Of a stretch of DNA of 64,000 nucleotides, positions 5,078 through 61,100 are shown piece by piece. Made by a program: the position numbers and the translations under genes. Numbering within the stretch: position 1 is the first letter of the stretch; the number at the start of each line of letters is the position of its first letter. Source of the stretch: an uncultured Gammaproteobacteria bacterium (GTDB lineage Bacteria > Patescibacteriota > Microgenomatia > Levybacterales > GWA1-39-11); contig CAYRKM010000001.1 of NCBI GenBank assembly GCA_964425075.1, positions 18,756-82,755 of the forward strand, read 5' to 3'. Below the pieces are notes generated by a model. That model was given only the letters and a program-made list of their open reading frames with translations, did not search any database and was not told where the DNA came from.

Positions 5078-5120
5078 AACCTCATATGTTAACAGAGATG
5101 AGGTCGTCTTGGCAAGAAAA

Positions 5121-5145: not shown

Positions 5146-5164
5146 CACGGATGTGTTGACTGTG

Positions 5165-16539: not shown

Positions 16540-16679
16540 TGCAATGCATATCTGCATCAGTACTGGTTGGTCCAACGACCCTCGGGCTTTGCCCGTTGAA
16601 TTCTTGTTTGTATCTTGCAAGAGGTAGACGCACTCAGCGTCGTTCGGGCTCCGCGCCCGCTTGCCACCACTAAGTCGCT

Positions 16680-17006: not shown

Positions 17007-17009
17007 CAC

Positions 17010-17105
17010 GCACTCCTTTCAGGGCTTTACGAACACATGTTGCAAGTGGTAGGGTTTTTGACCCACTCAGGCCTTAACGGCCCGCTTGCCACCACTAGAT
17101 CCCAC
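17010..17105. repeat. ~90-bp intergenic repeat, copy 1 (second copy at 17439..17540; truncated third copy at 16648..16679)
   Basis: near-identical strings GCAAGTGGTAGGGTTTTTGACCCACTCAGGCCTTAACGGC(CC/TG)GCTTGCCACCACTAGA at both sites; each carries the RBS of the downstream small gene. Confidence 0.65.
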
Positions 17106-17438
17106 TTAGAACATCTCCGACTTGATCAGCACAATCCTGACGTGTTGTTCGGAGAAGCCCGGAAGGACTGCAACCACATCCTCCTTGAGTCGCCTCGCCA
17201 GATCCTCAGAACGACGGACGCCGTGGTCAACCAGAAGGCTGACGACGAAATGGATGTTTGGGTGTAACCTGTCGGATTCCCAATCGATCCTGCTGAAGAA
17301 AACTGCCACGTCCTCCGGACGAACCGGTTTTCCTCCTGCGAAAAAGTGGCCTGCCACGACGCGGCGAATTGCCTCAGCCCTCTCGCCGAAAGGAGCAAAC
17401 GACTGTGGCTTGTAATGAACCTCTACCTGAATTTTCAT
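17106..17438 (-). CDS. small hypothetical protein, paralog B (GC-rich island B)
   Basis: 110 aa from MKIQVEVHYKPQSF (internal Met of ORF 17106..17573) with GAAGGGAGTAAG RBS; same size and beta-alpha pattern as paralog A. Confidence 0.5.
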   Translation of the reverse strand: MKIQVEVHYKPQSFAPFGERAEAIRRVVAGHFFAGGKPVRPEDVAVFFSRIDWESDRLHPNIHFVVSLLVDHGVRRSEDLARRLKEDVVAVLPGFSEQHVRIVLIKSEMF

Positions 17439-17540
17439 GGATCTTACTCCCTTCAGAGTTTCACGGACACGTGTTTTGCAAGTGGTAGGGTTTTTGACCC
17501 ACTCAGGCCTTAACGGCTGGCTTGCCACCACTAGACCTGG
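17439..17540. repeat. ~90-bp intergenic repeat, copy 2
   Basis: see copy 1. Confidence 0.65.
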
Positions 17541-17706
17541 GTTTACCTTTTGCGATATCGGCAGATGTCGCAAAAGATCTTGTGGTCAAAGATGGGATGA
17601 GGAGCAGTGCCCTCACCTCCACAATTTCCACATCCAGGATCTGGTTTTGAGGTCGGGGCTCCGCGCCCCGCCTCAAGCAGTTTCACTTCGTCATCCATAA
17701 CTTCTC

Positions 17707-17964
17707 CTATTCTCTTGTGGTTAGCTCTGACCATTTCATGACCAGAACAGTCCAACCGACCATTAAGGCCAGTAAGACCCTCTCCATCATTGGATCCGTG
17801 TAGTTGATTATCGTAGCCCAGGGAAGGACTAAGAGAATCAACATGTAGAAGGCGTAGGCCATCCAGCCCCGCCAACCATACTTCCACTCTGAGGCAAGTA
17901 TGATCGTTGAAACCAGAAGGTATGCTGCCACACCTCCGGACCAATACCAGAAGGACTCCGGCAT
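17707..17964 (-). CDS. small two/three-TM membrane protein (island B)
   Basis: 85 aa from MPESFWYWSGG... with AAAGGTGA RBS; followed by GGGGCGCGGAGCCCC hairpin. Confidence 0.45.
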   Translation of the reverse strand: MPESFWYWSGGVAAYLLVSTIILASEWKYGWRGWMAYAFYMLILLVLPWATIINYTDPMMERVLLALMVGWTVLVMKWSELTTRE

Positions 17965-18170
17965 GGTTATCACCTTTCTAGAGTAAACGCGTGTGGTTTT
18001 GATCCGGCCGCAGCCGAACCTTATAGCACTTTGTAGGCGCCTTTCTGACCACACAAAAGATGATCACAAAAGCGCCCACAAAAATACACAAACAAGAATT
18101 TTCAATGAACGGGTGAAATTATACCAAAAAAAGAGTGGAATTAATGATTTGGAGTCAAACTTTCAAATAT

Positions 18171-19516: not shown

Positions 19517-20596
19517 ATGCCTGAAGGTGAAATAATTCCTCGAGTAACAACATTTGAGCCAACCGGAACTCCGCACGAACTTGCAAATCCAAAATTTTTG
19601 GAGGGTTTATCAATGAAGATAGAACCCAGGCGTAAATTGGTTCCACTTTTTGAATATCTTAAAGGAGCACAAAACAAACCAAGAGGACAAGAGGGAGGCC
19701 AAACAGACCTTAATTCTCATTTTGAACAATTTATAGTACGGGAAGGTGGAGAAATTAAGCTAAAAGACCTAAGTGAATTTTCAGAAATGTTACGCCTAGC
19801 AGGATTTAATGCTGACCTTTTGGGTGTTCAGTCCGTTGGTAACAAAAACCAACAAGTAACAGCTGTTGTTCAGGATGTAGATCCTAATAATCCGCAGTCT
19901 GGATACGAACGACCGGTCACTGCTGAAGGACCACACATGATAATTGCTCCCTACGCAACTGACGAAAACGGACAACTCCACGTATTCCGCACAGTTCAAT
20001 TCAGAACAGGAAGTGCGGGCATTGACACCGCAAGGGGTTTTTTGGATGCTCAAACACTTTCCTCAGGACAACATATCTATAAGGTTGAAGGGTCTGAGGG
20101 AAAAGTTCAAGAAAATCTGCGTCGAATAATCAAAGAAGAAGGCGGAGAAAAATTACTTAACATTAAAAAAGTTCAATTTTTAGGCGCACATACTGTTAAT
20201 AAGAGCTTTGTCACTTCCCCTTCTGCACTTTTCGCGGTTGAAGTTGATTATGAAACTTTTACACAATTGAAAAATGTAGTTTCTGCTGAGGAAGCTGCAC
20301 GTCGTAAATTTGAGTTCGAGCAACAAGGCCTAACAGATATGATTCTTGATATGACTCCGGAACAATATGTACACTACAAAACCAATCCCTCTCTTGCCAA
20401 GGACATGGCATCAGACAGTGCGACAGATATTGTGATGATGGATTTCCTCATGCGCGAACTTCAAAAAACTAAAATGAAAGAAAGAACAGCTGAGATAAAA
20501 CAAGAAGCCAAACCAGAATCAGATAGTAGTGGTGCCCATCTTCTTACTAAGGCTAGAAAACTATTGCACACTCTTCGTCACAAAAAATCTGCCTGA
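19517..20596 (+). CDS. hypothetical protein
   Basis: 359-aa ORF; no motif recognised. Confidence 0.5.
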   Translation: MPEGEIIPRVTTFEPTGTPHELANPKFLEGLSMKIEPRRKLVPLFEYLKGAQNKPRGQEGGQTDLNSHFEQFIVREGGEIKLKDLSEFSEMLRLAGFNADLLGVQSVGNKNQQVTAVVQDVDPNNPQSGYERPVTAEGPHMIIAPYATDENGQLHVFRTVQFRTGSAGIDTARGFLDAQTLSSGQHIYKVEGSEGKVQENLRRIIKEEGGEKLLNIKKVQFLGAHTVNKSFVTSPSALFAVEVDYETFTQLKNVVSAEEAARRKFEFEQQGLTDMILDMTPEQYVHYKTNPSLAKDMASDSATDIVMMDFLMRELQKTKMKERTAEIKQEAKPESDSSGAHLLTKARKLLHTLRHKKSA

Positions 20597-20656
20597 TTTG
20601 ATGTGTGAAGGGGCGCCCCGCGGTTAGACCGCGGGAGCACCCCATGAACCAAGGAC

Positions 20657-21376
20657 CTAGGCCAACATTGCCTCCGGATGTCTGGCAAGCCAGACCATGA
20701 GGGTGTCGTTGGCTGTGGCCGAACGGTAGTTGATGCCGTTCAGCTCACCCGCGGCGATGCGTGAAAGAATCTCCCTCACGGGCAACCATGCAGTTCCTGT
20801 GATCCGCTCCTCCGTGTCGGTAGGAAGTCTGACTTGCGTCAGGTCCACTTCAACTTCAAAGAGCGAACTCCATGAGGCACAGAAGGTGGGATTGGGGTTG
20901 TGATGCCCCATCTCGACTATCTCGCCGATGAGTGCCTCAGGTGGAACTCCACCCTCTTCAAGCAGCTCACGAAGAGCAGCTGCGATCACGGTCTCCGCAC
21001 CGCTCTCGTTGAATGCCATAACCGCGGGCTGCCCGAATACGATCGGCGGGTCAGCAGGCTCTCCGGAAGGAAGGTCTGAAAATGGCCTCTCCTGGAAAAC
21101 CACTAACACTCGCCAGCCATCGGCAGCTTTGCCGGCGGCAACACCATTGATGTTTGCCGCCTCTCTGTACGCTCCCCGCTCGAAAGCGGGGGAACCGTCC
21201 GGGTTGGTCTGGACGCGAACGCGCATGGAACCAAACCGGGGGGATGTAATTCCCCAACCATCTGGATCTGGAACCCAAGCATTCTCACCACGAGTGGCAA
21301 GAAAGTCTGGGCAATCCACTGGGTCAATCCAACCGCGCATCGATGATCTATCCTCTCCTTGCGGCCTTACGGCCAC
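20657..21376 (-). CDS. Nudix-like hydrolase (GC-rich island C)
   Basis: 239 aa (GTG start, or internal MRGWIDP Met with GGAGAGG RBS); degenerate Nudix box ETVIAAALRELLEEGGV (Ex7REUxEExGU). Confidence 0.5.
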   Translation of the reverse strand: MAVRPQGEDRSSMRGWIDPVDCPDFLATRGENAWVPDPDGWGITSPRFGSMRVRVQTNPDGSPAFERGAYREAANINGVAAGKAADGWRVLVVFQERPFSDLPSGEPADPPIVFGQPAVMAFNESGAETVIAAALRELLEEGGVPPEALIGEIVEMGHHNPNPTFCASWSSLFEVEVDLTQVRLPTDTEERITGTAWLPVREILSRIAAGELNGINYRSATANDTLMVWLARHPEAMLA

Positions 21377-21530
21377 GCTATGTCCTTGGTTGTAAACGAA
21401 CTATCCAGTTGGTCGAGCTTATTTGTGTGTTTTTAAACACACAAAGGCCTCTCCAAAAAGACAGTAAATTTTATCACTTTTGAACTTAAATGTCAAATGC
21501 TATGGGATATAATATGGGGTTACTTTGATG

Positions 21531-33044: not shown

Positions 33045-33271
33045 AAGTTGATGATAAATGCTTGATGGTAGATGGAAAATGAAATTGAAGTAAAACTCAT
33101 ATTAACCATTTATCATTTGCCATTCATCATTATATTTAGTGTACGGGAGATAAGAAATCTCAGTCAAGTAGAACAAACGGTATCTGTGCATTGCGAAGAA
33201 TTTAATGGTTGGTGGGAGACGAGCGCGCGTGCGCATCGCCCCCCACCGGTAGTCGCAGAGTTGATAGGTGC

Positions 33272-33436
33272 TCACCTCGGATGACCCCTCCAGTGGTCGG
33301 GAGGCCTCGGCCGTCCAGCTTGCTCTTGTGCCCATTGCTCGTCGGCAATCCGTCGGTCTCGCCGCCAGGCAAAACCTAGCACGACATACACAATCAGACC
33401 GCCAAGGACGAATCCGAGAACAAACGCTCCAAGCAT
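33272..33436 (-). CDS. small single-TM peptide (54 aa), island D
   Basis: MLGAFVLGFVLGGLIVYVVLGFAWRRDRR...; preceded by CCGGCGCAAGCCGG palindrome plus AGGAAGGGAG RBS; not in ORF track (<60 aa). Confidence 0.4.
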   Translation of the reverse strand: MLGAFVLGFVLGGLIVYVVLGFAWRRDRRIADEQWAQEQAGRPRPPDHWRGHPR

Positions 33437-33469
33437 GTCTGTCTCCCTTCCTCCGGCTTGCGCCGGAAG

Positions 33470-33613
33470 CTAGTCTCTTCGATTGTTGGGTGGACGGCCG
33501 TAACCGTGCGTTGGTTGTTCTCCGGCAAGGATGATCCTGCCGAGTTTGGCCGTCAGCAGGAGACCTCCTGCCAAAACGACCACGATAACCACAACCCACA
33601 CGGGTAGCGACAC
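33470..33613 (-). CDS. small single-TM peptide (47 aa, GTG start), island D
   Basis: VSLPVWVVVIVVVLAGGLLLTAKLGRIILAGEQPTHGYGRPPNNRRD; preceded by CCGGCGCGAGCCGG palindrome plus GGAAGGAGG RBS. Confidence 0.4.
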   Translation of the reverse strand: MSLPVWVVVIVVVLAGGLLLTAKLGRIILAGEQPTHGYGRPPNNRRD

Positions 33614-33647
33614 AATCTGCCTCCTTCCACCGGCTCGCGCCGGGGCG

Positions 33648-33959
33648 CTAACGATGGCCTAGATTGTAGACCACCTCCCTATGGAAATTCCTGAACTCCC
33701 ACGACCTTGCTGATGCATTGTGGACGTCCTCATCTTGACTTGGAATCGTCGATAAGATCGTCCTCAGTTGACTAGCATACTCACGGATTTCACCGATTTG
33801 TGCGGGTTTTACCCCACGAAAACCATGCCGCAGCATGATTTCATAGCTCACGATTCTGGTGATTTTTCCCCTGAGTACTCCCATCAGGACAAGCCTCTCG
33901 TCAAGGCTCATTCTCTGAACCCGTTGTCTGAAGTTCGAGTTACCTCGTCGAGTAGTCAT
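33648..33959 (-). CDS. hypothetical small protein, possible DNA-binding (island D)
   Basis: 103 aa from MTTRRGNSNFRQRV (internal Met where GC-rich sequence begins); GGAAGGGG RBS; upstream perfect palindrome GTGCC-GCGAG-GGCAC. Confidence 0.4.
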   Translation of the reverse strand: MTTRRGNSNFRQRVQRMSLDERLVLMGVLRGKITRIVSYEIMLRHGFRGVKPAQIGEIREYASQLRTILSTIPSQDEDVHNASARSWEFRNFHREVVYNLGHR

Positions 33960-34357
33960 GACTGCCCCTTCCGTTAGATGCTTGAGTTTCACTCTGCGTT
34001 GTAAATGTGCAATGTGCCCTCGCGGCACAAGCAAATTACACCGCAGAACACAATTGGGGAAATTATATACTTTTGAAGTCATATTTACCACAAAGTGATA
34101 ATTATCAATTAAGAATGAAGAATTAATTTTTTTTGCATTTGAAACGAAGAGTGTGTTATGTATTTTCGTCATTTTGTACCGAACATATGAACCGGTAAAC
34201 GAATATGAGTGGTCCGAAGGAAAAAGCTGTAAAGGCTGAGCTTGCGAACTGCCGGAGCTTTTAATGAATGAGTGAAACCGGCGAATACGTGAGGGGCAAT
34301 TGACGAGAGGCTTTGCTACTTTCGCCGGAGCGAAAGTAGAAGAAAGAGGGAATAACT

Positions 34358-38438: not shown

Positions 38439-39710
38439 CTAAAGGCGAATTATTTCCTCTCGTGAAGGACCAGTGGAAACTGAAGAAACTTTGCATCCGA
38501 TTTGCTTTTCTAATTCTTCAATGTAAGCTTTTGCATTTTTTGGCAGCTTTTCAAATTTCTTTATTCCCTTGGTTGAAGTTTTCCATCCAGGCATTGTTTT
38601 ATAAATGGGGGTAATTTTTGACAAAAATAAGTCATCTCCATCATAATAACTAACTTTTTTCCCGTTTAATTTGTATCCTACGCAAAGCTTAATTTCGGAA
38701 AAATCATCCAAAATATCCAATTTCGTAAGTGCAATGCTTGTTACCCCATTTAGTTTTACCGCAAAACGTACAAGTTCTGCATCAAACCAACCACATCTTC
38801 GGGCTCTTCCCGTTGTGGCGCCATACTCGGCCCCAATTTTTCGAATATTCTCCCCCACCTTACCTGTTAACTCTGTAGGAAATGGTCCTGAACCAACGCG
38901 AGTGATATAAGCTTTTGCAACTCCTATGACCTCGGTTAATTTTTGAGGCGGAATACCTGCGTATGCTGTAACACCGCCAGAAACTATAGTTGATGCAGTG
39001 ACAAATGGGTAGGTTCCCCAATCATTGTCCAAAAGCACAGCCTGTGCTCCTTCAAGAAGAATATTTTTCTTCTTTTCAATTGCGTCAGACAGTATCGGAT
39101 ACGGTTCCTTTATGAAAGGTGCAATTTTCTTTTTAAAACCCTCAAATTCTTTTACTATTGTGTCGGTATCCAATGCTTTTTCCCCCAATGCTTTAAGAAT
39201 TTTATTTTTGACTGTCAGCTGGATAGAAAGTTTGCGCCTAAACTCAGAGGAATTAAGCAAATCGGAAAGACGAATACCATTATAACTAACCTTATCAGCA
39301 TGCACGGGCCCAATTCCTCTACCGGTAGTACCGGTTTTGCCTTTGCCTTTTGCTTCCTCCAAAAGTCTATCAAGAAGCTTGTGATAAGGCATAATTAAGT
39401 GACATCGAGGAGAGATAAAAAATCTATTTTTAAGTGAAATACCTGACTTTTCAAGCATTTCAATTTCTTCTATTAAAGTAGGAAGGTCCAAAACTACACC
39501 ATTGGTTATAAAAGCTGTAACACGTGGCGCGAATATTCCTGAAGGAAGAAGATGCATCTTGAAAGTTCCGAATTCGTTGATAACTGTGTGCCCAGCGTTA
39601 TTTCCTCCTTGAAAACGGACAACAAAATCCGAGGTGGTAGATAGTGTGTCAATAATTTTGCCTTTTCCCTCGTCTCCCCATTGGGTTCCAAGGATGAGTG
39701 TAACTGGCAT
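38439..39710 (-). CDS. purA: adenylosuccinate synthetase
   Basis: 423 aa; GTQWGDEGKGKIID P-loop; GNNAGHTV motif. Confidence 0.9.
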   Translation of the reverse strand: MPVTLILGTQWGDEGKGKIIDTLSTTSDFVVRFQGGNNAGHTVINEFGTFKMHLLPSGIFAPRVTAFITNGVVLDLPTLIEEIEMLEKSGISLKNRFFISPRCHLIMPYHKLLDRLLEEAKGKGKTGTTGRGIGPVHADKVSYNGIRLSDLLNSSEFRRKLSIQLTVKNKILKALGEKALDTDTIVKEFEGFKKKIAPFIKEPYPILSDAIEKKKNILLEGAQAVLLDNDWGTYPFVTASTIVSGGVTAYAGIPPQKLTEVIGVAKAYITRVGSGPFPTELTGKVGENIRKIGAEYGATTGRARRCGWFDAELVRFAVKLNGVTSIALTKLDILDDFSEIKLCVGYKLNGKKVSYYDGDDLFLSKITPIYKTMPGWKTSTKGIKKFEKLPKNAKAYIEELEKQIGCKVSSVSTGPSREEIIRL

Positions 39711-39781
39711 ATTTGAATTTAAATGAAGCCTCAGTGATTGTATAAAGCAAGTTTTAAAAAAACAAGTGGAAAAAGCATTAT

Positions 39782-39817
39782 GCGCCGGGAATCCGCCAAA
39801 TGGCGGAAACCCGGCGC
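39782..39817 (-). terminator. compound hairpin GCGCCGGG-AATCCGCCAAATGGCGGAAA-CCCGGCGC followed (minus strand) by T-rich tract
   Basis: nested perfect inverted repeats 30 nt after stop of island E operon. Confidence 0.5.
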
Positions 39818-39846
39818 TATCGCACCTCCTCGTCGGAAAGGACCAC

Positions 39847-40215
39847 TTACAGGCTTCGCCGTGTGCTCAGCACCCGACCACCAGCAACTACGCCAACGGC
39901 GAGCACAACTAGCACCGCGGCAACCGCCAGGCTGCCAGACTGGTCGATGAGACCAGACGAGCCACCATTGGCTGGTGTCTGAGGCGTCGCGGCTGAAACC
40001 ATCTCCCGACTGCCTTTCAGCAGCCCGGCATTACCCACTTTGGGTGGAGTAATCTTTACCGTCTCTTGCGGTCGTCTCTCGAAAGAGATACTAACCGCCT
40101 GGGGCAACTTATCAGCCTGCTCCTGTTCGTTTTGGGCTCGGACGAAAACACCGAGAACCAACACGAGGGACACCACCATTACAGCGGCTACCATTTCCTT
40201 CTTTCTTGAACGCAT
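39847..40215 (-). CDS. secreted protein with N-terminal signal/TM and C-terminal hydrophobic anchor plus basic tail (island E)
   Basis: 122 aa; GAGGAG RBS; ...SGSLAVAAVLVVLAVGVVAGGRVLSTRRSL C-terminus. Confidence 0.5.
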   Translation of the reverse strand: MRSRKKEMVAAVMVVSLVLVLGVFVRAQNEQEQADKLPQAVSISFERRPQETVKITPPKVGNAGLLKGSREMVSAATPQTPANGGSSGLIDQSGSLAVAAVLVVLAVGVVAGGRVLSTRRSL

Positions 40216-40227
40216 CCCAGACTCCTC

Positions 40228-40401
40228 TCAGAAAATCTTCCTGATGGCAAGACTTATGCTTACCAAAAGGAAGATGGCAAACCCGAGCGGCGGGATAGCC
40301 GGGGAGATAGCGCTCTCGCCAATCCCACTAGAACTGTTTGATAGTGACCACACAAGAGTGGCCACCATGGCCGTCACCGAGACGGCCAACAGTCGAGCCA
40401 T
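40228..40401 (-). CDS. small two-TM membrane protein (57 aa), island E
   Basis: AAAGGAGGTGAA RBS then ATG; MARLLAVSVTAMVATLVWSL...FAIFLLVSISLAIRKIF. Confidence 0.4.
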   Translation of the reverse strand: MARLLAVSVTAMVATLVWSLSNSSSGIGESAISPAIPPLGFAIFLLVSISLAIRKIF

Positions 40402-40457
40402 TTCACCTCCTTTCGGAAAGTAGTGTTACGGCAAGACCGATCGAGCATCCAGTTCTG

Positions 40458-40838
40458 TCACAGCAGTGGTGGTGGTTTCCGTCGAGACTTTCGTCTCGAA
40501 AGAAATGTGGCTACCAGAGCAACCACAACGCCCACTTCGAACAGTATCAGGATGAGCAAAGCCGATACTGGTGGATCTGGTGCATATGTTGAGGCGCGAT
40601 CGTTGAACCACTCGAAGATGAGGATGGCTCCTAACACAAGTAGCACTATCATGGGGGTGGTATAGCGCCCACGATGTGATGCATCTTGTTTCTTGGCTTG
40701 CTGGACATCGTCTGGTTTCCTGACTTGCTGGTAATCCCACCAACTTCTCAGTCCTTCGTCGGGATTGCTCCCGTATCCAGACGTGTGAGCGGCCTCCAGA
40801 ACCTCTGGTGGCCACGTTTCCTTTTCTACGCGAGACAC
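40458..40838 (-). CDS. membrane protein (126 aa, GTG start), island E
   Basis: AGGAGGAAAA-GTG start (VSRVEKETWPP...); two C-terminal TM helices and RRKSRRK tail; longer ORF-track call 40458..40937 lacks an RBS. Confidence 0.45.
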   Translation of the reverse strand: MSRVEKETWPPEVLEAAHTSGYGSNPDEGLRSWWDYQQVRKPDDVQQAKKQDASHRGRYTTPMIVLLVLGAILIFEWFNDRASTYAPDPPVSALLILILFEVGVVVALVATFLSRRKSRRKPPPLL

Positions 40839-40863
40839 TTTTCCTCCTAGGAATTTCGTCCGT

Positions 40864-41079
40864 TTAGTGCGGCCAGCCTGGCCTTGATCCTCTCTGCTCT
40901 CGCAGGAAGGCTTCCACTTCATCCCCCAACCCAACATCGAAGTCGGGCGGAAGGGGCTCGAGCGGTGGGAGTTTTGGCTGAAACAAGATCCGGTGAACCA
41001 TCACCGGACCTATCAACATTACTCCCACAACGATTGCATCGAACACAGTTTGCCGAATCCTTCGTACTAGTCGAGACAC
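40864..41079 (-). CDS. small membrane protein (71 aa, GTG start), island E
   Basis: AGGAGGAACGACA-GTG (VSRLVRRIRQTVFDAIVVGVMLIGPVMV...); upstream perfect palindrome CTGCGGAC-AA-GTCCGCAG. Confidence 0.4.
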   Translation of the reverse strand: MSRLVRRIRQTVFDAIVVGVMLIGPVMVHRILFQPKLPPLEPLPPDFDVGLGDEVEAFLREQRGSRPGWPH

Positions 41080-41297
41080 TGTCGTTCCTCCTGTCCTTTC
41101 CTTCAATTGTTCGTGTGCGATAACTGCGGACAAGTCCGCAGAGAATTTTCAGATCCCCCAACAAGGCAGCTTTTGCCAAGTTCGGTTATCCAATGATGGA
41201 ATAATACCAAAAAATAGCAACAGAAACAAACTATGGGTTAAAAATTTGTGCTTTTTTACTCTTTGTTTTTTTTATTTGAAACAATATGGTATAGTAG

Positions 41298-41729
41298 TTG
41301 GGTATGAAAATGGCAGTATTTCTACTCTTGTCATCACCTCTTCTTATTCCTTTATCCGCTTACGCAACGTCTAACACTAATGTAGAAGTCTCAAATAATG
41401 GTGGTACTTCGTATACAAATGTAGAAATTGAAAATAACACAAGCTCAACAAATGTTGTAACCAATGACTCCAAAACTAAAGTCAGAATTGAGTCAAATGG
41501 GAAAGTCACAGAATATGAATCAGAAAAACCAGAAAATATAGAACTTAAATCAGAAGATGGAAAAACAAGTGTAAAAATAAATAATGAGTCGAAAGTAACC
41601 ACTACACCTTCAAGTACAACATCCGCAAAGGATAACGAAAATGATAAAAAATCAGAAGAAGCAAATAAAGAGGGAAAAAATATTTTAGAAATTATAAAAG
41701 ACTTCCTTGAAAACCTTTTTAATTTCTAA
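41298..41729 (+). CDS. secreted low-complexity repeat protein
   Basis: 143 aa; signal peptide MGMKMAVFLLLSSPLLIPLSAYA; reiterated T/N/S/K/E-rich segments. Confidence 0.5.
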   Translation: MGMKMAVFLLLSSPLLIPLSAYATSNTNVEVSNNGGTSYTNVEIENNTSSTNVVTNDSKTKVRIESNGKVTEYESEKPENIELKSEDGKTSVKINNESKVTTTPSSTTSAKDNENDKKSEEANKEGKNILEIIKDFLENLFNF

Positions 41730-42712
41730 ACTTCCTTTTTTAGTAATTCGGAAAGTCGCGTCATACTTACATCATCATAAATTGAAACCGGCAATATTTC
41801 CTTTTTAGTCTTTGAAAGAGTTTTTATTTGTTTTTTTAGTTCTTCATCAGTCAGTAAATCACACTTTGTAAGCAGAATTATTTCTTTTTTTAAAAGCAAA
41901 CTTTTATCATAGCCTTCGAATTCTTCGCGCACAGTTTTATATGCCTCATATACGTCAGGGGTTGTTGCGTCAATACAATGCAAAAGCATTTTGGTTTTTT
42001 GTATGTGTTTTAGAAATTGAATTCCAAGCCCTTTACCAACTGACGCGCCCTCAACAAGGCCTGGAATATCAGCTAGAACTATTTTATTTTTGCCATTTTT
42101 TGTCTTTGTAGATATTGTGCCCAAATTGGGTTCTAAAGTAGTGAAGGGGTAATTTCCAATTTTTGGGACGGCATTAGTAAGGGTTTTTAGCAAAGAACTT
42201 TTCCCTGCATTTGGAAATCCGATAAGACCAATATCTGCAATAAGACTTAACACAAGATGCAATTCTTTTTCTTCACCTTTTTGGTGAAATAAATTATATT
42301 TTCGCATTGCAAATGTCTCTTCGCTTCTATCGTGATTACCGATCTGTCCCTTTCCACCTCTCGCAATTCTAACTGGTACTTTTTCTTCAAGTAACTCAAC
42401 TGCTTTCTCGTTTGCCGTATCTATAATAGTAGTCCCCAAGGGTACGAGAACAGTTATATCCTCGCCACCTCGCCCATCTAAATTTTTATTCATACCGCGC
42501 TCACCATCTGGCGCTTTTATTAGTTTTTTGAATCTAAATTCATTTAAATCATGGACGTTTGCCGAACCTTCAAAATAAATATCTCCCCCACGGCCACCAT
42601 TTCCACCATCTGTATGTGGATTTTTACTACCGTAATTTGTATGAAATGATTTTCCGCCATCTCCACCGTTTCCGGCTTTTACTTTTATTGTTACATCATC
42701 AACTAAAGACAT
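41726..42712 (-). CDS. obg: GTPase Obg/CgtA
   Basis: 328 aa; glycine-rich Obg fold (AGNGGDGGKSFH...GGNGGRGGDIYF); G domain GFPNAGKSS. Confidence 0.9.
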   Translation of the reverse strand: MSLVDDVTIKVKAGNGGDGGKSFHTNYGSKNPHTDGGNGGRGGDIYFEGSANVHDLNEFRFKKLIKAPDGERGMNKNLDGRGGEDITVLVPLGTTIIDTANEKAVELLEEKVPVRIARGGKGQIGNHDRSEETFAMRKYNLFHQKGEEKELHLVLSLIADIGLIGFPNAGKSSLLKTLTNAVPKIGNYPFTTLEPNLGTISTKTKNGKNKIVLADIPGLVEGASVGKGLGIQFLKHIQKTKMLLHCIDATTPDVYEAYKTVREEFEGYDKSLLLKKEIILLTKCDLLTDEELKKQIKTLSKTKKEILPVSIYDDVSMTRLSELLKKEV

Positions 42713-49485: not shown

Positions 49486-49756
49486 TTTTTTTACACTTCT
49501 ATTACTTCTTTTCCTCTAAGATTCAGCTTCTCTTGCTTTAATTTAACCTAAATTTATAACTTCGTCAGAAATTTGTCATGAAAAATTGACTGTAAGTGGT
49601 AAAATTGTTGAATTGAAAATCCAATTTGGGTTATATCAATAAGCTCTTTAATAATTGGGTGGATTTTTAGTGCTTGAAAGGGTTCTCCCGATCTTAAGAT
49701 ATATTGTCTTCGGATCGGGGGAACTCCCCAAGGGATCACAGAAAGGATCAACAACC

Positions 49757-50896
49757 ATGCCGAGTTTGCGCGGCCAAGAGGTTACCATTTCCGTCATTAA
49801 GGCGGATGTTGGCAGCATCGGAGGCCACACGCGCCCAAGCCCAACCATGATCAGACACGCGGAAAGAGCCATCGAAGGCGCAATCCGCGAAGGACTCATC
49901 GTGGACGGCTTCGCCACCTTCATCGGTGACGACACTGCCCTGAACATGCTTCACACTCGTGGAGAAAACTCGCAGGACGTACATCTCTTCGCATCAACGA
50001 CGTTCTTCGAGATGACCGGGATCGCGGAGAGAGAAGGTCTCTATGGCGCAGGCCAAGACCTCCTTGAGAGTGCTCCCAGCGGCAACGTCCGCGGAGCGGG
50101 ACCTGGTGCTGCCGAGATCGAATTCGTTCTCTTGCCTGACCGACGTTCGGCGGAGAGCATGATGATCTTCTCTGCAGACAAGTGCGGACCGGGAATGTTC
50201 AATCCCTACATCCGCGACGTCCTCACCAGCCCTGACGTCAACGGAGGGCTTCTTATTGCCTCTCCGCAGCGAGCAGGCTTCACGGTGAAGATCATCGACA
50301 TGAGTCCAGGGGCAAAGCAGGCCATCACGCTCACTCTGCCTGAAGACCGAGATGCGATGGCTGCTCTTCTGAGGACGCCAGACGTCTTCGCTGTCAAAAG
50401 CGTCTATTCGGGTCAGCATCCCGAAGAAAAGCTGATGGACTGCACGACCGACAGGCTTCACAGCTTCGGACCGACCGTGTACAAGGGCAAAGATGACCCT
50501 GTGCTCATTGTCCGAAATCAGGGGCTGTCCCTGGCACCGGAGGAGATCCTTCGACCGTGGACAAATCCGCGCAGAACCACAGGCGGCGCCCGTGGGAGCT
50601 CGGTGCAATACCCCTTCCCGAGCGCCATCAACACCCCGGTGACAGGAGCTTACTGCCAGACGCTAGTCGCCTGCATCGGCTTCTCGGTCAGCGAGGAGGG
50701 CAAGTTCTCGGAACGGGTCGACTTCTTTGCTTGGCCCGTCTGGGACTGGACACGTCAGCAGGTCTCCAAGCTTGCTAACCAGCTCTACCGCGAGGGGTTC
50801 AACGAAATGGCAATCGCCTCGAGTGGCGAACTCGCCTACACAGGCCTTCGTGACCTGGACGAGGCACTTTTGGCCCGTTTCGAGCCCATCGACTAG
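49757..50896 (+). CDS. fbp: bifunctional fructose-1,6-bisphosphate aldolase/phosphatase (class V FBPase, archaeal type), island F
   Basis: 380 aa from MPSLRGQEVTISVIKADVGSIGGHTRPS; ISVIKADxGS, GDDTALNMLHTRGE and GLYGAGQDLLESAPSGNVRGAGPGAAEIEF blocks match the FBP aldolase/phosphatase family; ~60% GC. Confidence 0.8.
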   Translation: MPSLRGQEVTISVIKADVGSIGGHTRPSPTMIRHAERAIEGAIREGLIVDGFATFIGDDTALNMLHTRGENSQDVHLFASTTFFEMTGIAEREGLYGAGQDLLESAPSGNVRGAGPGAAEIEFVLLPDRRSAESMMIFSADKCGPGMFNPYIRDVLTSPDVNGGLLIASPQRAGFTVKIIDMSPGAKQAITLTLPEDRDAMAALLRTPDVFAVKSVYSGQHPEEKLMDCTTDRLHSFGPTVYKGKDDPVLIVRNQGLSLAPEEILRPWTNPRRTTGGARGSSVQYPFPSAINTPVTGAYCQTLVACIGFSVSEEGKFSERVDFFAWPVWDWTRQQVSKLANQLYREGFNEMAIASSGELAYTGLRDLDEALLARFEPID

Positions 50897-51209
50897 TCCG
50901 GGGTAACCGGAGATCCACCCATCCCGAGAGAAGAGTCCCTGCCAGTACTACATAGACTGCAGACTGACCTCAGGAGAATGCATTCCTGAACGTCTTTTTG
51001 CAGCAAAATGTAATGCTTACTCTTCTCTCTCACCCTTTGCAAATGAAGCTCCACGAGTTAACACTCATGGTATCTTCTTTTCCTCGCTTGCGCCTTAGAG
51101 GGTATTAAGCTCGGAAAATAAAAAGGTTTGTTTTCAAAGGATGAGAATAATATGAATTTTTTGACGGAATTATCTAAAAAAATGGGGATTGAAGGAGGAT
51201 TAAAGTTAA

Positions 51210-52918: not shown

Positions 52919-55669
52919 ATGAAGGTATTTAAACGCCTAATAGCTTGTCTTGTGCTTATCCTGCTCCTTTTCGGACTATTTCCGCCTCCGCCAATCTATT
53001 CTGGTGATCTTTCAAATACGACATTAAGACTAACTAGGCAAAAAATTTCCACCTCATCAGGTGGAATGGTTTGTGCGCAAACTCCCTCATCTGACAATGG
53101 AACTGAAGCAAGTGTGCAGGTTATCTTTCCTACAGGATTTACAGTTAATTCTACAGCCTCAAATTGGACAGTTACAACTTCAAATCTTGCAAATGGGGCA
53201 ACAGCCTGGCCGGGAATTGATACGGCTACGGCTGTTTCTGGTCAAATTGTTACATTTCCAAGTACAAATTTATCGGCAAATACACTATATTGTTTTAATT
53301 TTTCTTCCTCAAGCACTCTTACCAACCCATCTTCAGCCGGAAATTATAGTGGAACCATCCGCACTCGTACTTCAGGTGCTGCAACTATAGACAGTAGGGA
53401 TTATGGAGTGGCAATTGTAAGTAACGAGCAAATTACTGTAACAGCAACAGTTGCAGCCTCACCAACTGACTATCAGGTTTCACTTGCCAAAACTTCACCC
53501 GCTAGTAGCACCTTTGCACAAGACACAACTATAGCCTATCAATTAACCTACGGCACAACACTTAATTATGCCACATCAATTACTGTTGAAGCACAGTGGA
53601 GTCTTGGTACAATTGAGGGATCAGGTGCGCCGACAGTTTCGGCTTTGAATTATGTAGTAGGAAGTGCATCCAATGGATATAATAGCACTGCTCCCGTCAT
53701 TGACACAACAAACAGAAAAATTACCTGGACAATTTCTTCATTCCCAGGCAATACATCTAACCAAACTGTAACTTTCAGTCTTAAAACCACTGATAATTAT
53801 ACAGGCTCTCTTGACGTTGACTTCACTACAAGTGGAAGGGTGCTTGGACCTGGAACTCAAACATCAGACTCAGATGTAAATGGCACCTATATATATAACT
53901 ACGGTATTACTCCAACTCCACAATCTGCTGCAGCTCCGGGGGGCGATGGGAGGTCTGATGGAAGGTCTGACGGCAGAGGAGGTTCCACCACCACAAATTC
54001 GCCACTTGCAATTGGTGATGTTGGGGTAAGAACTATTTCTGCAACTAATGCAACAATATTTGTAGAAACAAACAAAGCTTCATCCGTTACACTTTCGTAT
54101 GGAACTTCCCGAAATTCACTTATTAACACCGTAACTTCAGGAAACACACTACAACACCTGCTAAAACTCCAAAATCTTACTCCAAATACCCAATATTATT
54201 TTAGAATAACTGCACGTAGCGAATCAGAAACAGCCACCTCAGACCTCTTTACTTTCACAACTGCACTCGATATTCCCCCGCCGGAAATTGATAATAATTC
54301 ATTGAATATAACAGTTGGGGATGTCATACTCTCAGATCCATCTAAGGCATTGAATAACATCGCTAGAATAGTCTTACCTACAAATACGGCTTATTCCTTT
54401 AAGTTTATGATTTCTAATTTTAAAAACATAAAAGATGTAAGGGTTATAGCTAGAAATAAAAACGTACTCGGTGCAAACACACTAGGCAATAGAGGACTAA
54501 GCACAAATGAAGTTAGCCTTTCCGAAGTAAATCCAGGCCAATATATTGGAAGGCTTCAAAGTGACCAAAACCCCGAAACCTACCAAATATTTGTTAGTGT
54601 CTCAGACTTTAACGGAAATATCGCAGAACAACTCCTTGCAGAACTTCATGTAAAGCGTCCTTTCACGATTGTGTCAGCGAGAGATAATTCGCCTGTTGAA
54701 AATGCCAGGGTTACTATTTACTATCTCCACCCCAGATTCAAAACCTATGAACTCATTTCCAAGAATCTGCTAGAAATCCAGAATCCTGAATATAGCAACA
54801 TTGAAGGAATAGTAGATATTGCATTGCCTCAAGCGAAATATCGAGCTGAAATTGAAGCTTTAGGCTTTGCTACCAAAACCGTGGATTTTGAAATAGGAAT
54901 TGGGCCGGGTCAAGGTTACCCTCAAGTAAAATTGGAACCTACAGGGTTTGGTTTTATTGAAACAATAACATTTATTGTAGTAGTAGCTGGTGATGTTTTC
55001 TCTACATTTAATTCACTTATACAAGAACTAGGTTTCTCAAATAGAATGTTTGGATTTTTAGCTCTTATTACAGCAATTGAATTTACAATACTCCTCTTTT
55101 TTAGTTTTGCTGTTTATTTTGCCGTTACCCCCTGGAGACTTCCTTTTTATATTTTTTACCACCTCACAGCTTTTCTTAGAAAGGACAAGAACGGACAGAT
55201 TATAAAGGGGACTGTTATCAACCGCGAGGATGGATACGGAGTTAAGGGAATTTTGGTTTATATTCACAAGGGTTTAGGTAAGGTAATTGGCCATACTATA
55301 ACCAACTCGTTTGGTGAGTTTTATATACGGGTACCATCCTCAGGGTCTTACAGTATAACTACAATGCATAAATCATTTAAATCCACTCCTTCTTTCCGAG
55401 TCGAAAATGCATCAGGAGTTCAGAAGATTTACATTGAGGAGAAACGATTAAATAAACTCTCACTATTCCTGCACAAAACAGGATGGTATGGGGGGTATTT
55501 ATTATGCGACTTTATAGAGCTTTCTTTATTAATAACTCTTGTAATTGAAATACTTTTTGTTGTAAACCTCGGGTTTCTAAAAACCTTACCATTTCTTATC
55601 CTCGCAATTTCAAACTTTATACTTCTTCTTTACTTTAGAAAACACAAAGACGAGGCTAAAATTAGATAA
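52919..55669 (+). CDS. large S/T-rich surface protein with carboxypeptidase-regulatory-like domains and C-terminal multi-TM region
   Basis: 916 aa; signal peptide; GRSDGRSDGRGG tandem repeat; two CarboxypepD_reg-like segments (ARVTIYY...AEIEALGFATKTVDFEI; KGTVINREDGYGVKGILVYIHK...); four or more C-terminal TM helices. Confidence 0.6.
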   Translation: MKVFKRLIACLVLILLLFGLFPPPPIYSGDLSNTTLRLTRQKISTSSGGMVCAQTPSSDNGTEASVQVIFPTGFTVNSTASNWTVTTSNLANGATAWPGIDTATAVSGQIVTFPSTNLSANTLYCFNFSSSSTLTNPSSAGNYSGTIRTRTSGAATIDSRDYGVAIVSNEQITVTATVAASPTDYQVSLAKTSPASSTFAQDTTIAYQLTYGTTLNYATSITVEAQWSLGTIEGSGAPTVSALNYVVGSASNGYNSTAPVIDTTNRKITWTISSFPGNTSNQTVTFSLKTTDNYTGSLDVDFTTSGRVLGPGTQTSDSDVNGTYIYNYGITPTPQSAAAPGGDGRSDGRSDGRGGSTTTNSPLAIGDVGVRTISATNATIFVETNKASSVTLSYGTSRNSLINTVTSGNTLQHLLKLQNLTPNTQYYFRITARSESETATSDLFTFTTALDIPPPEIDNNSLNITVGDVILSDPSKALNNIARIVLPTNTAYSFKFMISNFKNIKDVRVIARNKNVLGANTLGNRGLSTNEVSLSEVNPGQYIGRLQSDQNPETYQIFVSVSDFNGNIAEQLLAELHVKRPFTIVSARDNSPVENARVTIYYLHPRFKTYELISKNLLEIQNPEYSNIEGIVDIALPQAKYRAEIEALGFATKTVDFEIGIGPGQGYPQVKLEPTGFGFIETITFIVVVAGDVFSTFNSLIQELGFSNRMFGFLALITAIEFTILLFFSFAVYFAVTPWRLPFYIFYHLTAFLRKDKNGQIIKGTVINREDGYGVKGILVYIHKGLGKVIGHTITNSFGEFYIRVPSSGSYSITTMHKSFKSTPSFRVENASGVQKIYIEEKRLNKLSLFLHKTGWYGGYLLCDFIELSLLITLVIEILFVVNLGFLKTLPFLILAISNFILLLYFRKHKDEAKIR

Positions 55670-58196: not shown

Positions 58197-61100
58197 TTAA
58201 TTAACTATCAAATAATTAAATTCAACGTTTTTCTCAGCATTAACCTCAATACCAACAGTGAATGATCCATCAATTTCTTTTTCAGGATCCTCCTGTTTTT
58301 GCTCCAGTAAATATAATTGATGAGAGGATTGAGTTTTGGGGGTTATAAAAATAAGAGATGTATCTTTAACTAGCTTATTTAGAACTTTTATATGATCTGT
58401 ATTCTTCTTAAGAGTTATAAGTCCTGCAGCAGCTGTTGACTCAACTTCGGTATCACTAAGTACTTTTACTTTACCTTGCGCAAGTAGTAATTGACTACTT
58501 TGCACTGATTGGGCGCTAAATATACCTTTGACCGCAACGTTCTTCTCAAAACTTACATTCTCCCTAAAAACTGCCTCACCGTTGGCCATGAAGGTTATTG
58601 CATTACCCAAAAATGAAATATTCCCTTGTTTCAATGGTTGGATTTCCAAGTCTTGAAGCGCGTTAATTGCACCATTTCCAATTGTCAAATTGTTACCAAC
58701 AGTAATGCTATCCATCACTGAAACTTCACTTATAGTGGTCGTTCCGAATACAACTAAATTGTCGGCAATAGAGACAGCCCCTGAACCACTTGCGAACTGA
58801 CTCATTGATAAGAGGTTAAGAGCCTCCATTTTCTCAAGACGTGTAGAAAGAGCCTTCATGCTACTTGTTAGCTCCTCTAAATTGGCTGCTGCTTTACTCA
58901 TCTGCGATGAGAATTGACTTACTGCAGAACCTGAAGCTGATTGTGTCAAAAGGTCAATTTTGTTGGTTAATATTTCAAGCCCTTCAATTGACTCCGCCTT
59001 TATCTTTTTCGCAACTAATAGATCCGTTATTATCTTTGGACTGATTACCTCCTGGGTAGCAGCTATGCTATCAGTAAAAATACCCTGATTATTATTTTTC
59101 TGGGTTTTAAGGAATGCAAGTATTTCCTGCTGACGCCTATCATCTGATCCTAATTCAAAATTAAGCCCTGCAATATTTGGAAGAGAAGCTTCATCAATAG
59201 CAAATCCCTGCTCTGCCATGGCAATATCTACTGACTGGCCGTTGTAATCTACAAGATTTGCAAAAAGCATAACCTCTCCACACTTTGTATCAGGAAGTGA
59301 ACCAAGATTTATTTTTGGACATTCTGTTGCATACTCTTCATTGAAATCCTCCAAAGCCTTACCCAGAACTCTTCCACCAACTGTAGCCTTCATTGCATAC
59401 CCTGGGATGGAAGACGAGGTTAGATAGTCCCCTGCATGAACAGGTCCATTTTCATTGGTTACCTTAACTGGTACACGTCCCACCAATGCAATTGGATGAG
59501 AATCCTCAGTATATGCACCCGCTACAAAACCTGGCTTTGTTGATACAACTCCTAAAGCATCCTTTTGATATTGACCAGTTGTCTTCTTTACATTATGGTC
59601 ACCTTGTGAAGAATCTATCTGAACAACTTCACCTGGAAGCAACGTCTCAACTGAGGAATAATTTTCAGCCAAGTCAGCTCCACTTGTAAAGAATCCACCT
59701 TGCTGACCTGCGTATATATTTCCTGACTCATTAACTCTAAAAACTGTTTGGCCACCGCTTTGAAGCTTTAAAAGATCGGCATCATTGGTAATTTTATATT
59801 CAAATAACGTTGGCTGAGCTATAGTTCTCCAAGCAAGAGCACCATTCGAGCGCCAGACATCCTGATTAACATCACTGTACGTAGGAAAGTCCCTTGAGAA
59901 ATTTATTTGAACCTGGAGCCACTTATCAGTTGCAGCTGCCCCTAAATTCCCATCTGAAGGATAAACAGATTTATAGTCTGCTGTAAGAAGTGAGTCCTTA
60001 TCTGCAGCAGTCCTGACCTCAATATTAAGATGCTTATCAGCATTTTGTTTCCACGTCATAACAGAGCTTGTGCTTAACTGTGGAACATACATTTGACCTG
60101 AAAGATATTGCCCATCTGCAAAATAACCTGTATCAATAAGACTTACGTTATTGTTACCAGCCATTCCTCCATTTATCATTACCCACTTACCGTCTGGTCG
60201 CTGGAAAGCTACTGCTCCCGCTCCCTGAGGACTTACAAGCTGGGGTCCTGCACCAACTGCCAAGCCTCCTGAATATCCCAAAACCTGTGATCCTCCATAA
60301 GGAGACCAGATGCTTGAGGCATTAGCTGTATTTGCAGCCATATCAATAGTCTGGGTTTGACCACGTGTTATTAACCAAGTTCCGTCTGCTCTTGGTATTG
60401 CAACGCTTCCTCTACCGGCAGCATTTGTCATTGCGGTACCCGCTGCGAATGAATTGGTATATGGATTATAAACAGTCAGCGTAGCTGCTGGAGCTCCATT
60501 TGTACCAGCTGCACCTGCTACCACCATCCAAGCACCATCTTGACGTTGAAATACGTAAGAACCACATCCAAAGGCAACACCTGTGTTTGCAGCTGCCTGG
60601 AATAATTTTTTATTAGCATCATAAACCATCGATGTCTGAACACCTGTTGTAAACTGTCCGACTCCAATAAATACCCTATAAAGACCCTGATTTCCCCCAG
60701 CCATAGGTACAGCCCAAGCACCACAAGTAATATTACTTGAAGATGTTGGTCCTGCTGCAAGCGCAGTTGTGCCTTGCTGTAAATCTTTATACGGGTTAAA
60801 GAGTGTCGTAGTGGCAGCAGCCCCACCATGAACCAATGTGTATGTGCCATCCGTATTTTTGATAGGAAATCCTCCACGTCCTGAATTTGCTGAAAGCGCC
60901 GGTCCTGCTGCAAACCTAGAACCTGAAGCTGCTCTTGGATCATAAATATTTGTAGTTGTCCTTCCTGTTCCTCCTGCATCCTCACCAAATACTATTAAAA
61001 ATCTCCCATCAGGCAATTTAAGCGCATATGACCCCCACCCAGGGTATGTTGTAGGTACATCTCCTCCACCTGACTGAAGACTAAAGGTTGAAGACGCAGG

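Follow-up and report, generated by a model that had tools for sequence, protein, structure and literature searches.

A probable horizontally acquired accessory operon of small envelope proteins in a Levybacteria-like genome

On the minus strand of a 64-kb stretch of contig CAYRKM010000001.1 (the whole of which we call the window), four small open reading frames (ORFs) of 71, 126, 57 and 122 amino acids, each led by a Shine-Dalgarno (SD) sequence, follow one another in a block that we refer to as island E (approximately 39770-41195, 1.4 kb). In our assessment island E is probably a real, horizontally acquired accessory operon of small envelope proteins in the genome of a Levybacteria-like member of the Candidate Phyla Radiation (CPR). 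This assessment draws on the conservation of the four genes, on the exchange of genes between fixed boundaries in related lineages, and on the relationship of the last gene to a surface protein family of high-GC bacteria. We are highly confident of the structural and evolutionary description of island E given below; an envelope-interface role for it is a tentative proposal, which we regard as possible but doubtful.

Results

Four small genes under purifying selection

The genes of island E are as follows:

40864-41079, minus strand: ORF1, 71 amino acids (VSRLV...), GTG start 7 nt after GGAGG
40458-40838, minus strand: ORF2, 126 amino acids (VSRVE...), GTG start 4 nt after AGGAGGAA
40228-40401, minus strand: ORF3, 57 amino acids, ATG start 4 nt after GGAGG
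39847-40215, minus strand: ORF4, 122 amino acids, ATG start

The SD sequence (GGAGG or GAGGAG) lies 4-7 nt upstream of each start, and AGGAGGAA precedes both GTG starts. An earlier note on this DNA had described four ORFs with GGAGG ribosome-binding sites and two VSR starts from GTG, and all of these are present. It had also treated the block as one compact unit of small membrane proteins; we likewise judge the four genes to be real and to form one transcription unit, and at least one hydrophobic segment of transmembrane (TM) length is found in every product of every cassette variant.

The locus is recovered in independent assemblies. Two Logan contigs match the window at 100% identity, L001 (SRR14271365) over window positions 39644-42025 and L002 (SRR14271372) over 38489-40239; because they come from different runs, both junctions between AT-rich and GC-rich DNA are independently reproduced, and gene callers report the identical four ORFs on independent Logan contigs. 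Three further loci carry relatives of the cassette. L083 (SRR22388098) contains obg, a secreted-protein gene, the leader and small ORFs, the contig ending inside the ORF4 homologue; L087 (SRR22387838) has a similar layout and continues through the terminator into purA; and L088 is a 685-bp NCBI contig with the last two cassette genes and the terminator. The cassette is known from these four lineages (window, L083, L087 and L088). Misassembly, which the earlier note had named as a possible explanation, is refuted by the junctions, identical in two runs, and by the synteny of L083 and L087.

The ratio of nonsynonymous to synonymous substitution rates (dN/dS) is 0.13-0.35 in all comparisons except that of ORF2 between the window and L087 (0.66), and a peak at codon position 3 appears in five of the six tabulated comparisons (for example, 16/6/35 at positions 1/2/3 for ORF1 and 13/9/30 for the C-terminal part of ORF4). 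The recently diverged ORF2 pair of window and L087 gives 10/14/17, with little bias. The cassette genes are under purifying selection, and the gene models stand. Two longer frames that had been named as possible true genes (40458-40937 and 40426-40815) are not conserved: the 159-amino-acid frame is an N-terminal extension without an SD sequence, open for 54 codons in the window, 3 in L087 and 16 in L083, and the 129-amino-acid frame has one stop in L087 and four in L083.

GC-rich islands in AT-rich genomes are often RNA genes, and both ends of island E are strongly structured, so we considered whether the block might be a structured non-coding RNA, or a misassembled high-GC fragment, with accidental ORFs. 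We find this scarcely credible. No Rfam family matches the block even at E <= 10 (at the gathering score the window yields four tRNAs only, and at E <= 10 positions 39600-41350 yield only chance-level microRNA and snoRNA matches). Substitutions in the annotated frames are biased to codon position 3, and an amino acid identity of 75% in ORF1 at a synonymous divergence (dS) of 1.3 is more than drift of the DNA would leave; as noted, the junctions recur in independent assemblies and syntenic loci in other samples.

The start contexts of ORF1 and ORF2 (41067-41089 and 40826-40848) form a 23-nt direct repeat of 74% identity, which may reflect either a duplication or a common translation-initiation context; starts of the form (G/A)TGTCTCG, encoding V/M-S-R, are found in many cassette genes (also at L083 3655, 4825 and 4976, and at L087 3201).

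A mosaic interior between fixed boundaries

Comparison of the three longer loci gene by gene gave the following values (amino acid identities are over aligned columns):

obg: dS 1.50 for window-L083, 1.37 for window-L087, 0.35 for L083-L087 (95% amino acid identity)
secreted-protein gene: dS 0.81 for window-L083, 0.84 for window-L087, 0.02 for L083-L087
ORF2: dS 1.08 for window-L083 (53% amino acid identity), 0.18 for window-L087 (82%), 0.97 for L083-L087 (54%)
ORF1: amino acid identity 75% for window-L083, 44% for window-L087, 40% for L083-L087

The DNA of L083 and L087 is 95% identical over 2.4 kb, and this identity ends just after the leader core; beyond it only three patches remain (64 bp at 77%, 82 bp at 93% and 117 bp at 91%). 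The gene orders are 1-2-3-4 in the window, 1-2-X-3-Y-4 in L083, 1'-X'-2-Y'-4 in L087 and ...Y''-4 in L088, where X is a two-TM protein with a weak resemblance to the ORF2 hairpin and the Y peptides (34-49 amino acids) each join a signal-peptide-like segment to a short tail. Because the window and L087 differ by a dS of only 0.18 in ORF2 as against about 1.4 in obg, and because the gene orders differ, we conclude that the interior of the cassette has been exchanged between lineages while its boundaries stayed fixed. Neither this mosaicism nor the [A/P]PxTG family of ORF4 (described below) appeared in the earlier note.

Short exported cues, with ORF2 as a membrane sensor or processor, would make the cassette a secreted-peptide signalling (pherotype) locus. 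The Y peptides of L083, L087 and L088 do combine a signal peptide with a short polar tail, and pherotype loci show a similar allelic mosaicism; the window, however, has no separate Y gene, at most a weak resemblance of the ORF4 N-terminus to the Y peptide of L088, and its neighborhood of the cassette contains no kinase, RRNPP-type receptor or response regulator, which leaves this reading very improbable.

Several of these small genes escape gene callers. In L083 the caller took a non-conserved 92-amino-acid frame (4691-4969) over the conserved 52-amino-acid ORF3 homologue (4665-4823), and in L087 it left uncalled X (54 amino acids, 3006-3170), ORF2 (114 amino acids, 3201-3545) and Y (45 amino acids, 3588-3725); absence from protein databases therefore understates the spread of the cassette. 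Searched as DNA patterns, the leader core and the terminator motif had no matches in JGI metagenome contigs, and the leader core had none in IMG/VR. An uninterrupted (empty) site could not be defined, obg lying within 6 kb of purA in one of 80 fetched loci (L060, with a gap of 3.2 kb). Directly downstream of the ORF2 stop, a hairpin (GCGGCCGGTCTGGCCGC) is conserved between L083 (4329-4356) and L087 (3546-3573), within the patch of 93% identity. The window lacks this hairpin, which may act as an attenuator or processing site inside the operon or mark the boundary of a recombination patch.

An invariant leader core and a compound terminator

The boundaries of the exchanged interior carry the following elements:

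41201-41229, minus strand: putative sigma-70 promoter, with -35 TTGTTT (41224-41229), a 17-nt spacer and the TG-extended -10 TGGTATTAT
41080-41194, minus strand: putative 5' leader of about 115 nt, an imperfect long hairpin (approximately 41149-41193) followed by the palindrome hairpin
41114-41149, minus strand: invariant 36-nt leader core AAAATTCTCTGCGGACTTGTCCGCAGTTATCGCACA, identical in the window (and L001), L083 and L087
39766-39843, minus strand: 3' element and compound intrinsic terminator, with hairpin and T-tract at approximately 39769-39826

The putative promoter has its -10 hexamer, TATTAT, at 41201-41206, which would place the start of transcription near 41194, and the window, L083 and L087 show almost no variation in the promoter block CCCATAGTTTGTTT-N-TTTTTTGGTATTATTCC. 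The first hairpin of the leader keeps a similar shape in the three loci despite sequence changes, with z scores of only -1.7 to -2.3. The leader core is conserved without a single change, although the dS of obg between the window and L083 or L087 is about 1.4; given an overall identity of about 82% in the promoter-leader segment, simple arithmetic puts the chance of 36 unchanged bases at about 0.001.

Within the core lies a perfect 18-bp palindrome (41124-41141; CTGCGGACAAGTCCGCAG on the plus strand), which had been reported earlier as standing upstream of the ORFs and which occurs once in the window, where 0.01 matches would be expected by chance at up to 3 mismatches. Its proposed function as an operator does not fit its position: it is found inside the putative leader rather than overlapping a promoter, with the only conserved -10-like element lying 60-88 nt upstream of it. 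At about +53 to +70 it is therefore likelier to act as an RNA hairpin (a 7-bp stem with a CUUG loop is predicted) or as a roadblock or protein-binding site than as a classical operator; being invariant, it offers no covariation by which an RNA hairpin could be told from a protein-binding site. The suggestion that the module is self-regulated likewise finds no counterpart in the cassette, which encodes no regulator (Pfam detects no DNA-binding protein among the four products).

Three other ideas about the leader were rejected. A leader peptide is disfavored by L083, in which the short TTG-started frame is not open; pairing of the conserved UUCUCU with the GGAGGA of an SD sequence is possible in the minimum-energy fold of the window and is inconsistent across the three leaders; and the GAAA(A)TTCTCTG common to the CPR leader and the upstream regions of donor-type genes was judged too short to indicate homology.

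At the other end, the earlier report of a nested hairpin followed by a T-tract is borne out by folding. The element comprises CCTTTCCG..GAGGAGGTGCGATA, an outer stem (GCGCCGGG/CCCGGCGC), a variable inner hairpin and then CTTTTTCC; the arrangement CCTTTCCG..GAGGAGGTGCGATAGCGCCGGG, inner hairpin, CCCGGCGCATAA..CTTTTTCC is kept in the window, L087 and L088. The window sequence folds at -45.8 kcal/mol (z = -5.9 against shuffled sequences; -3.8 to -5.9 across loci). The inner hairpin differs among the three, with three of its five pairs changed on both sides and yet kept, and the whole 28-pair structure has four such pairs. With a stable GC-rich stem-loop followed by a T-tract, the sequence has the features of a genuine intrinsic terminator; a simple consensus scan missed it because the loop and stem limits of the scan exclude compound hairpins. 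Donor-type genes have an unrelated terminator.

ORF4 derives from a family with a sorting signal

ORF4 has a hydrophobic segment at residues 6-28, after MRSRKKE, with the properties of a Sec signal peptide, and a cleavage-like site (VRA|Q, read by eye). A polar linker follows, with two degenerate sorting motifs (PPKVGNAGLL and PANGGSSGL), and then a conserved TM segment (LAVAAVLVVLAVGVVAGG) and the tail RVLSTRRSL, so that a hydrophobic segment with a positively charged tail is in place and the xPxTG expected just upstream of it is not (PPKVG and PANGG stand instead). The signal peptide, C-terminal hydrophobic segment, basic (RR) tail and absence of LPXTG that had been noted earlier are thus all found.

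The 27 relatives of ORF4 are 86-183 amino acids long, mostly 90-105 (alignment A2 comprises these and the window sequence; 29 proteins were listed at E <= 10), and the closest dozen share 74-92% identity over the C-terminal 30-46% of the window ORF4. They are built of a signal peptide (MGLRVAAVLVGLIAALAPAALLAYDA) and a Thr/Ala-rich linker, followed by SAPKTGNAGLIDQSGSLAAAAVLVVLAVSVVAGGRVLSTRRNN. Most are from genomes of 64-70% GC (L084, L085, L086, L089 and L090) and carry [A/P]PxTG. In those loci the ORF4 relative stands alone beside a CHRD-domain protein, and the shared tail also ends the CHRD-domain protein and other Thr/Pro-rich proteins, after APKTG, PPKTG, PPQTG, PPRTG or APTTG. By sequence comparison, then, ORF4 belongs to and appears to descend from a small surface-protein family of 64-70% GC bacteria.

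In L084 (8001-9194), L085 (7434-9237), L089 (2-853) and L090 (458-1247), adjacent Thr/Pro/Ala-rich proteins share this C-terminal module, which reads [A/P]P[K/Q/R/T]TG-x-x-G, a TM segment and GGR(V/L)L(S/T)xRR. A module common to unrelated proteins and built of xPxTG, a TM segment and Arg residues is the hallmark of a sortase-type sorting signal, and the module looks like a lineage-specific version of one; a scan of 28 family members against NCBIfam at E <= 10 returned no sorting-signal model (for example, TIGR01167, LPXTG_anchor).

In the CPR copies the xPxTG position is occupied by PANGG (window), VSTGG (L087) and PDTTG (L088), these being the three copies in which the C-terminus can be compared, as L083 ends before the region. 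The TM segment and tail are kept: across GLIDQSGSLAVAAVLVVLAVGV(V/I)AGGRVLSTRR the three differ at a single position (Val or Ile) among the 33 residues that run to the RR pair, and the dN/dS of ORF4 is 0.22-0.30. Because PxTG is lost while the TM segment and tail are retained, the CPR proteins are most likely anchored in the membrane, rather than cleaved or linked to the wall. No ORF with a TLxTC motif, as in a sortase, was found in the window, which covers 64 kb of a contig of about 835 kb. The conserved pattern of small residues in the C-terminal helix may mediate helix packing. The second degenerate motif of the window ORF4 resembles the relatives with two and three motifs (P0022 and P0019). 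The first 66 residues of the window protein have no counterpart in the family and show 29% identity over 42 amino acids to the Y peptide of L088 (E = 1e-4, in a tiny database), consistent with a possible, weakly supported fusion with a Y-type peptide.

Genes from high-GC bacteria that drift without function, that is, a decaying remnant of a transfer, could lose a sorting motif (it is gone from all CPR copies with a C-terminus), lack ORF3 as L087 does, have the N-terminus of ORF4 replaced as in the window, and reach a dN/dS of 0.66 as ORF2 does between window and L087. We consider decay improbable, however, on five observations: no copy contains a frameshift or internal stop; SD sequences are retained before the four window ORFs and before those starts of the relatives that were read; most comparisons give a dN/dS well under 1, with dS saturated; ORF4 has a near-identical TM segment and tail in the window, L087 and L088; and the leader core is 100% conserved, with the terminator held by compensatory changes.

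ORF1, ORF2 and ORF3

The other three products resemble no described family, which was the outcome of a database check that the earlier note had proposed. ORF1 has a basic N-terminus and one TM segment (approximately residues 10-33); the C-terminal region, which ends in GWPH, is acidic and rich in proline. The hydropathy and charge of ORF1 suggest a single-pass protein with the N-terminus inside and a proline-rich acidic ectodomain. Compared with L083 it shows 75% amino acid identity over aligned columns and a dN/dS of 0.13, and a word-based search of 5.8 billion proteins found only ORF1 itself and the L083 copy (73% identity). ORF2 has a soluble N-terminal region of about 58 amino acids that carries the invariant EVLEAAH..GYGSNP.EGL, a two-TM hairpin and the basic tail SRRKSRRK, for which the same properties suggest a cytoplasmic N-terminal domain, a TM hairpin and a basic tail. 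The same word-based search returned ORF2 itself and the L083 copy (41% identity), and an exhaustive HMMER profile search of 1.84 billion representatives found nothing beyond these two; a further profile match (E = 6.6e-4) to a TM stretch of a 750-amino-acid protein was judged spurious. ORF2 is also present in L087, as an uncalled ORF. Within the sequences searched, ORF1 and ORF2 thus appear to be orphans whose homologues are confined to sister lineages. ORF3 consists of two hydrophobic segments linked by GIGE.AISPAIP, probably either a small hairpin or a signal peptide with an anchor (again judged from hydropathy and charge); its homologue in L083 (4665-4823, with a TTG start) shows 69% identity and a dN/dS of 0.23, and ORF3 is absent from L087.

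The best family matches of the cassette proteins are below threshold and compositional (LpqS at 20 bits, cutoff 35; FtsX at 17 bits, cutoff 25.5), and a scan of nine such proteins (window, L083 and L087) gave no significant match to PADLOC (best E = 0.066) or PHROGs (best E = 0.089).

Small TM proteins, mosaicism between conserved flanks and peptides such as Y (34-49 amino acids) are typical of toxin or bacteriocin loci with immunity genes and of superinfection exclusion systems, in which small hydrophobic products harm or block membranes and others protect the producer; ORF2 and X, moreover, share two TM segments and a charged C-terminus with class II holins. Neither in nor beside the cassette, however, is there a double-glycine leader, a processing or export ABC transporter, a modification enzyme, an endolysin or a regulator. 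No PADLOC or PHROG match was obtained, and the viral contigs and plasmids searched held no relatives (ORF2 and ORF4 profiles gave no confirmed relative in IMG/VR, and tblastn searches of plasmids with ORF2 and a donor-type ORF4 relative were negative). The only gene with a family outside the cassette, ORF4, comes from surface proteins and not from toxins. On balance we regard a toxin, immunity or exclusion function, of the kind that the earlier note had offered as an example, as unlikely.

Foreign composition and genomic surroundings

Island E lies between purA and a secreted-repeat gene, as had been described earlier:

38439-39710: purA, flanking island E on one side
41298-41729, plus strand: signal-peptide repeat protein gene, flanking island E on the other side and followed by obg

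PurA is at most 69% identical to the proteins of Levybacteria/Levyibacteriota metagenome-assembled genomes; the window therefore comes from a Levybacteria-like CPR bacterium that has no close sequenced relative. The GC content is 53% in island E and 39% in the window, and the foreign composition proposed in the earlier note extends to the codon level: the G+C content of third codon positions (GC3) is 0.50-0.64 in the four window ORFs, as against 0.25-0.30 in purA, obg and other resident genes. In L083, L087 and L088 the cassette genes have a GC3 of 0.38-0.68, and the relatives of ORF4 in high-GC genomes have 0.77-0.88.

Raised-GC stretches of more than 300 bp number 11 in the window; of these we treat the seven largest (0.7-1.7 kb, 46-56% GC) as islands. 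The six other than island E are at 5017-5694, 16455-18119, 20473-21471, 33096-34081, 49633-51115 and 60094-61071, and their ORFs have a GC3 of 0.44-0.69. No similarity between the seven was found by blastn or tblastx. The GC-rich islands suggest repeated, independent horizontal acquisitions, a habit that looks general for this genome.

Other genes of the window include the following:

49655-50896, plus strand: 413-amino-acid ORF, GC3 0.67, a full-length class V fructose-1,6-bisphosphatase (PF01950, E = 1.7e-96), inside a GC-rich island
20657-21376, minus strand: 239-amino-acid ORF with a NUDIX domain (E = 4.3e-6), GC3 0.60, inside another GC-rich island
52919-55669, plus strand: 916-amino-acid ORF with a signal-peptide-like start
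58197-63947, minus strand: 1916-amino-acid, repeat-rich and Thr/Gly/Asn-rich ORF heading to the window end and holding a GC-richer stretch

The class V enzyme is of the fructose-1,6-bisphosphate aldolase/phosphatase type, which is characteristic of archaea and of bacteria that branch deeply; for a CPR genome this metabolic gene looks foreign. The 916- and 1916-amino-acid ORFs are probably surface proteins. The AT-rich neighbour of the cassette (window 41298-41729, plus strand; L083 2898-3314 and L087 2026-2442, both minus strand) is divergently oriented and present wherever the cassette was found. It encodes a protein of 138-143 amino acids with a signal peptide, TNV.V/KV.I repeats and a conserved C-terminal helix, IIK(D/E)F..NLFNF, showing 62% identity between lineages, a dN/dS of about 0.35 and no Pfam match.

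Discussion

A model for island E

In the model that we favor, the conserved TG-extended promoter would drive transcription of a structured leader of about 115 nt, and a single polycistronic messenger RNA would end at the compound terminator. All four products would insert into or cross the cytoplasmic membrane, as their hydropathy and charge suggest, ORF4 forming a Sec-exported stalk held by its C-terminal TM anchor. The interior between leader core and terminator would behave as a recombining, strain-variable cassette in which genes are gained, lost, reordered and swapped, and the products would form or join a small, variable complex of the envelope. The diversity of the cassette leads us to propose that its products interact with an extracellular partner, for instance the surface of a host, a phage or a toxin.

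A more specific version makes island E a host-interface module of an episymbiotic CPR bacterium, with a stalk protein captured from a high-GC monoderm host, a conserved expression slot made up of the invariant leader hairpin and the terminator, and exchange between strains tracking variation in hosts or phages. We offer it as a speculation with a small chance of being correct.

Several observations weigh against the proposal of an acquired envelope operon. The searches of Pfam, NCBIfam, PHROGs and PADLOC gave no significant match, and the AlphaFold2 model of ORF2 contains helices only, at low confidence (predicted local distance difference test [pLDDT] 63.6, predicted template modeling score [pTM] 0.28), and is uninformative. 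The word-based method used to search for homologues of ORF1 and ORF3 can miss distant relatives. The direction of transfer is read from composition alone, and no relatives of ORF1, ORF2 or ORF3 were found in donor-type loci, leaving a single-donor origin of the whole operon unsupported. In the window-L087 pair, the ORF2 dN/dS of 0.66 could stem from a relaxation of selection and not from diversification, and the statistics of selection and covariation are thin, resting on four lineages. Finally, the promoter falls below the threshold of a consensus scan, which makes the assignment of the leader an inference.

CPR bacteria are mostly uncultured, and their hosts and the contact between their envelopes and those hosts are largely unknown. 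Against this background, island E would represent a Levybacteria-like lineage that retains compositionally foreign genes for tiny envelope proteins, of which at least one was apparently taken from a high-GC surface-protein repertoire and repurposed, the sortase motif being lost and the anchor kept; near-identical strains differ through reshuffling of the set, which lies behind a leader element that does not vary. Should the donor lineage prove to be the host, such islets could be used as markers for host prediction. If the host-interface proposal is true, the host lineage of these Levybacteria would be traceable through the ORF4 family, and the 36-nt leader core would count as a novel element, either a regulatory RNA or a site that binds protein.

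Comparison with known systems

Phage class II holins, spanins and exclusion proteins are, like the cassette products, small, with one or two TM segments and charged C-termini; unlike them, the cassette products have no PHROG match, no endolysin or phage genes nearby and no relatives in IMG/VR. Of the features of class II bacteriocin-immunity loci (a precursor with a double-glycine leader, a C39-peptidase ABC exporter and a small TM immunity protein), island E shares only small TM proteins: there is no Pfam or NCBIfam match and no transporter-sized ORF between obg and purA.

Integron arrays share with island E a conserved promoter-proximal boundary followed by variable, short, promoterless ORFs, and here too identity breaks after a palindromic element. 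The spacers of island E (12-60 nt), however, hold only SD sequences and no attC-like imperfect palindromes, and no integrase-sized ORF adjoins the cassette (the flanks are the secreted-repeat gene, obg and purA; ORFs farther away are unassigned to families). Homologous recombination in the flanks suffices to explain the integron-like pattern.

Sortase-anchored proteins and the ORF4 family have a common layout: a signal peptide leads, a stalk of low complexity follows, and the C-terminus is a hydrophobic segment with an Arg-rich tail. The relatives from 64-70% GC genomes carry APKTG, PPKTG, PPQTG or PPRTG before the TM segment, with the tail on several unrelated proteins. The motif (S/P)PXTG is a variant of LPXTG recognized by sortase B of Clostridioides difficile. 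The likeness has limits: the CPR copies of ORF4 lack the Thr-Gly scissile pair in register, and some relatives repeat PKTGNAGL two or three times in tandem, as cleavage sites rarely do.

The pneumococcal blp bacteriocin-immunity locus and capsule loci are strain-variable loci between conserved flanks. Island E is comparable in that its variable content is bounded by the leader core and terminator, and farther out by obg and purA, in strains that are 95% identical in their flanks, and in that gene histories inside the cassette disagree with those of the flanks. It differs in having no bacteriocin precursors, transporters, regulators or biosynthetic genes, and in being just 1.2-1.5 kb of tiny membrane proteins of a composition foreign to the genome. 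As far as these comparisons reach, what seems new is that ORF1, ORF2 and ORF3 fall in no described family and that the ensemble matches no described system; the overall pattern is a familiar one, that of a strain-variable foreign islet between conserved flanks with a surface protein derived from a sorting-signal family.

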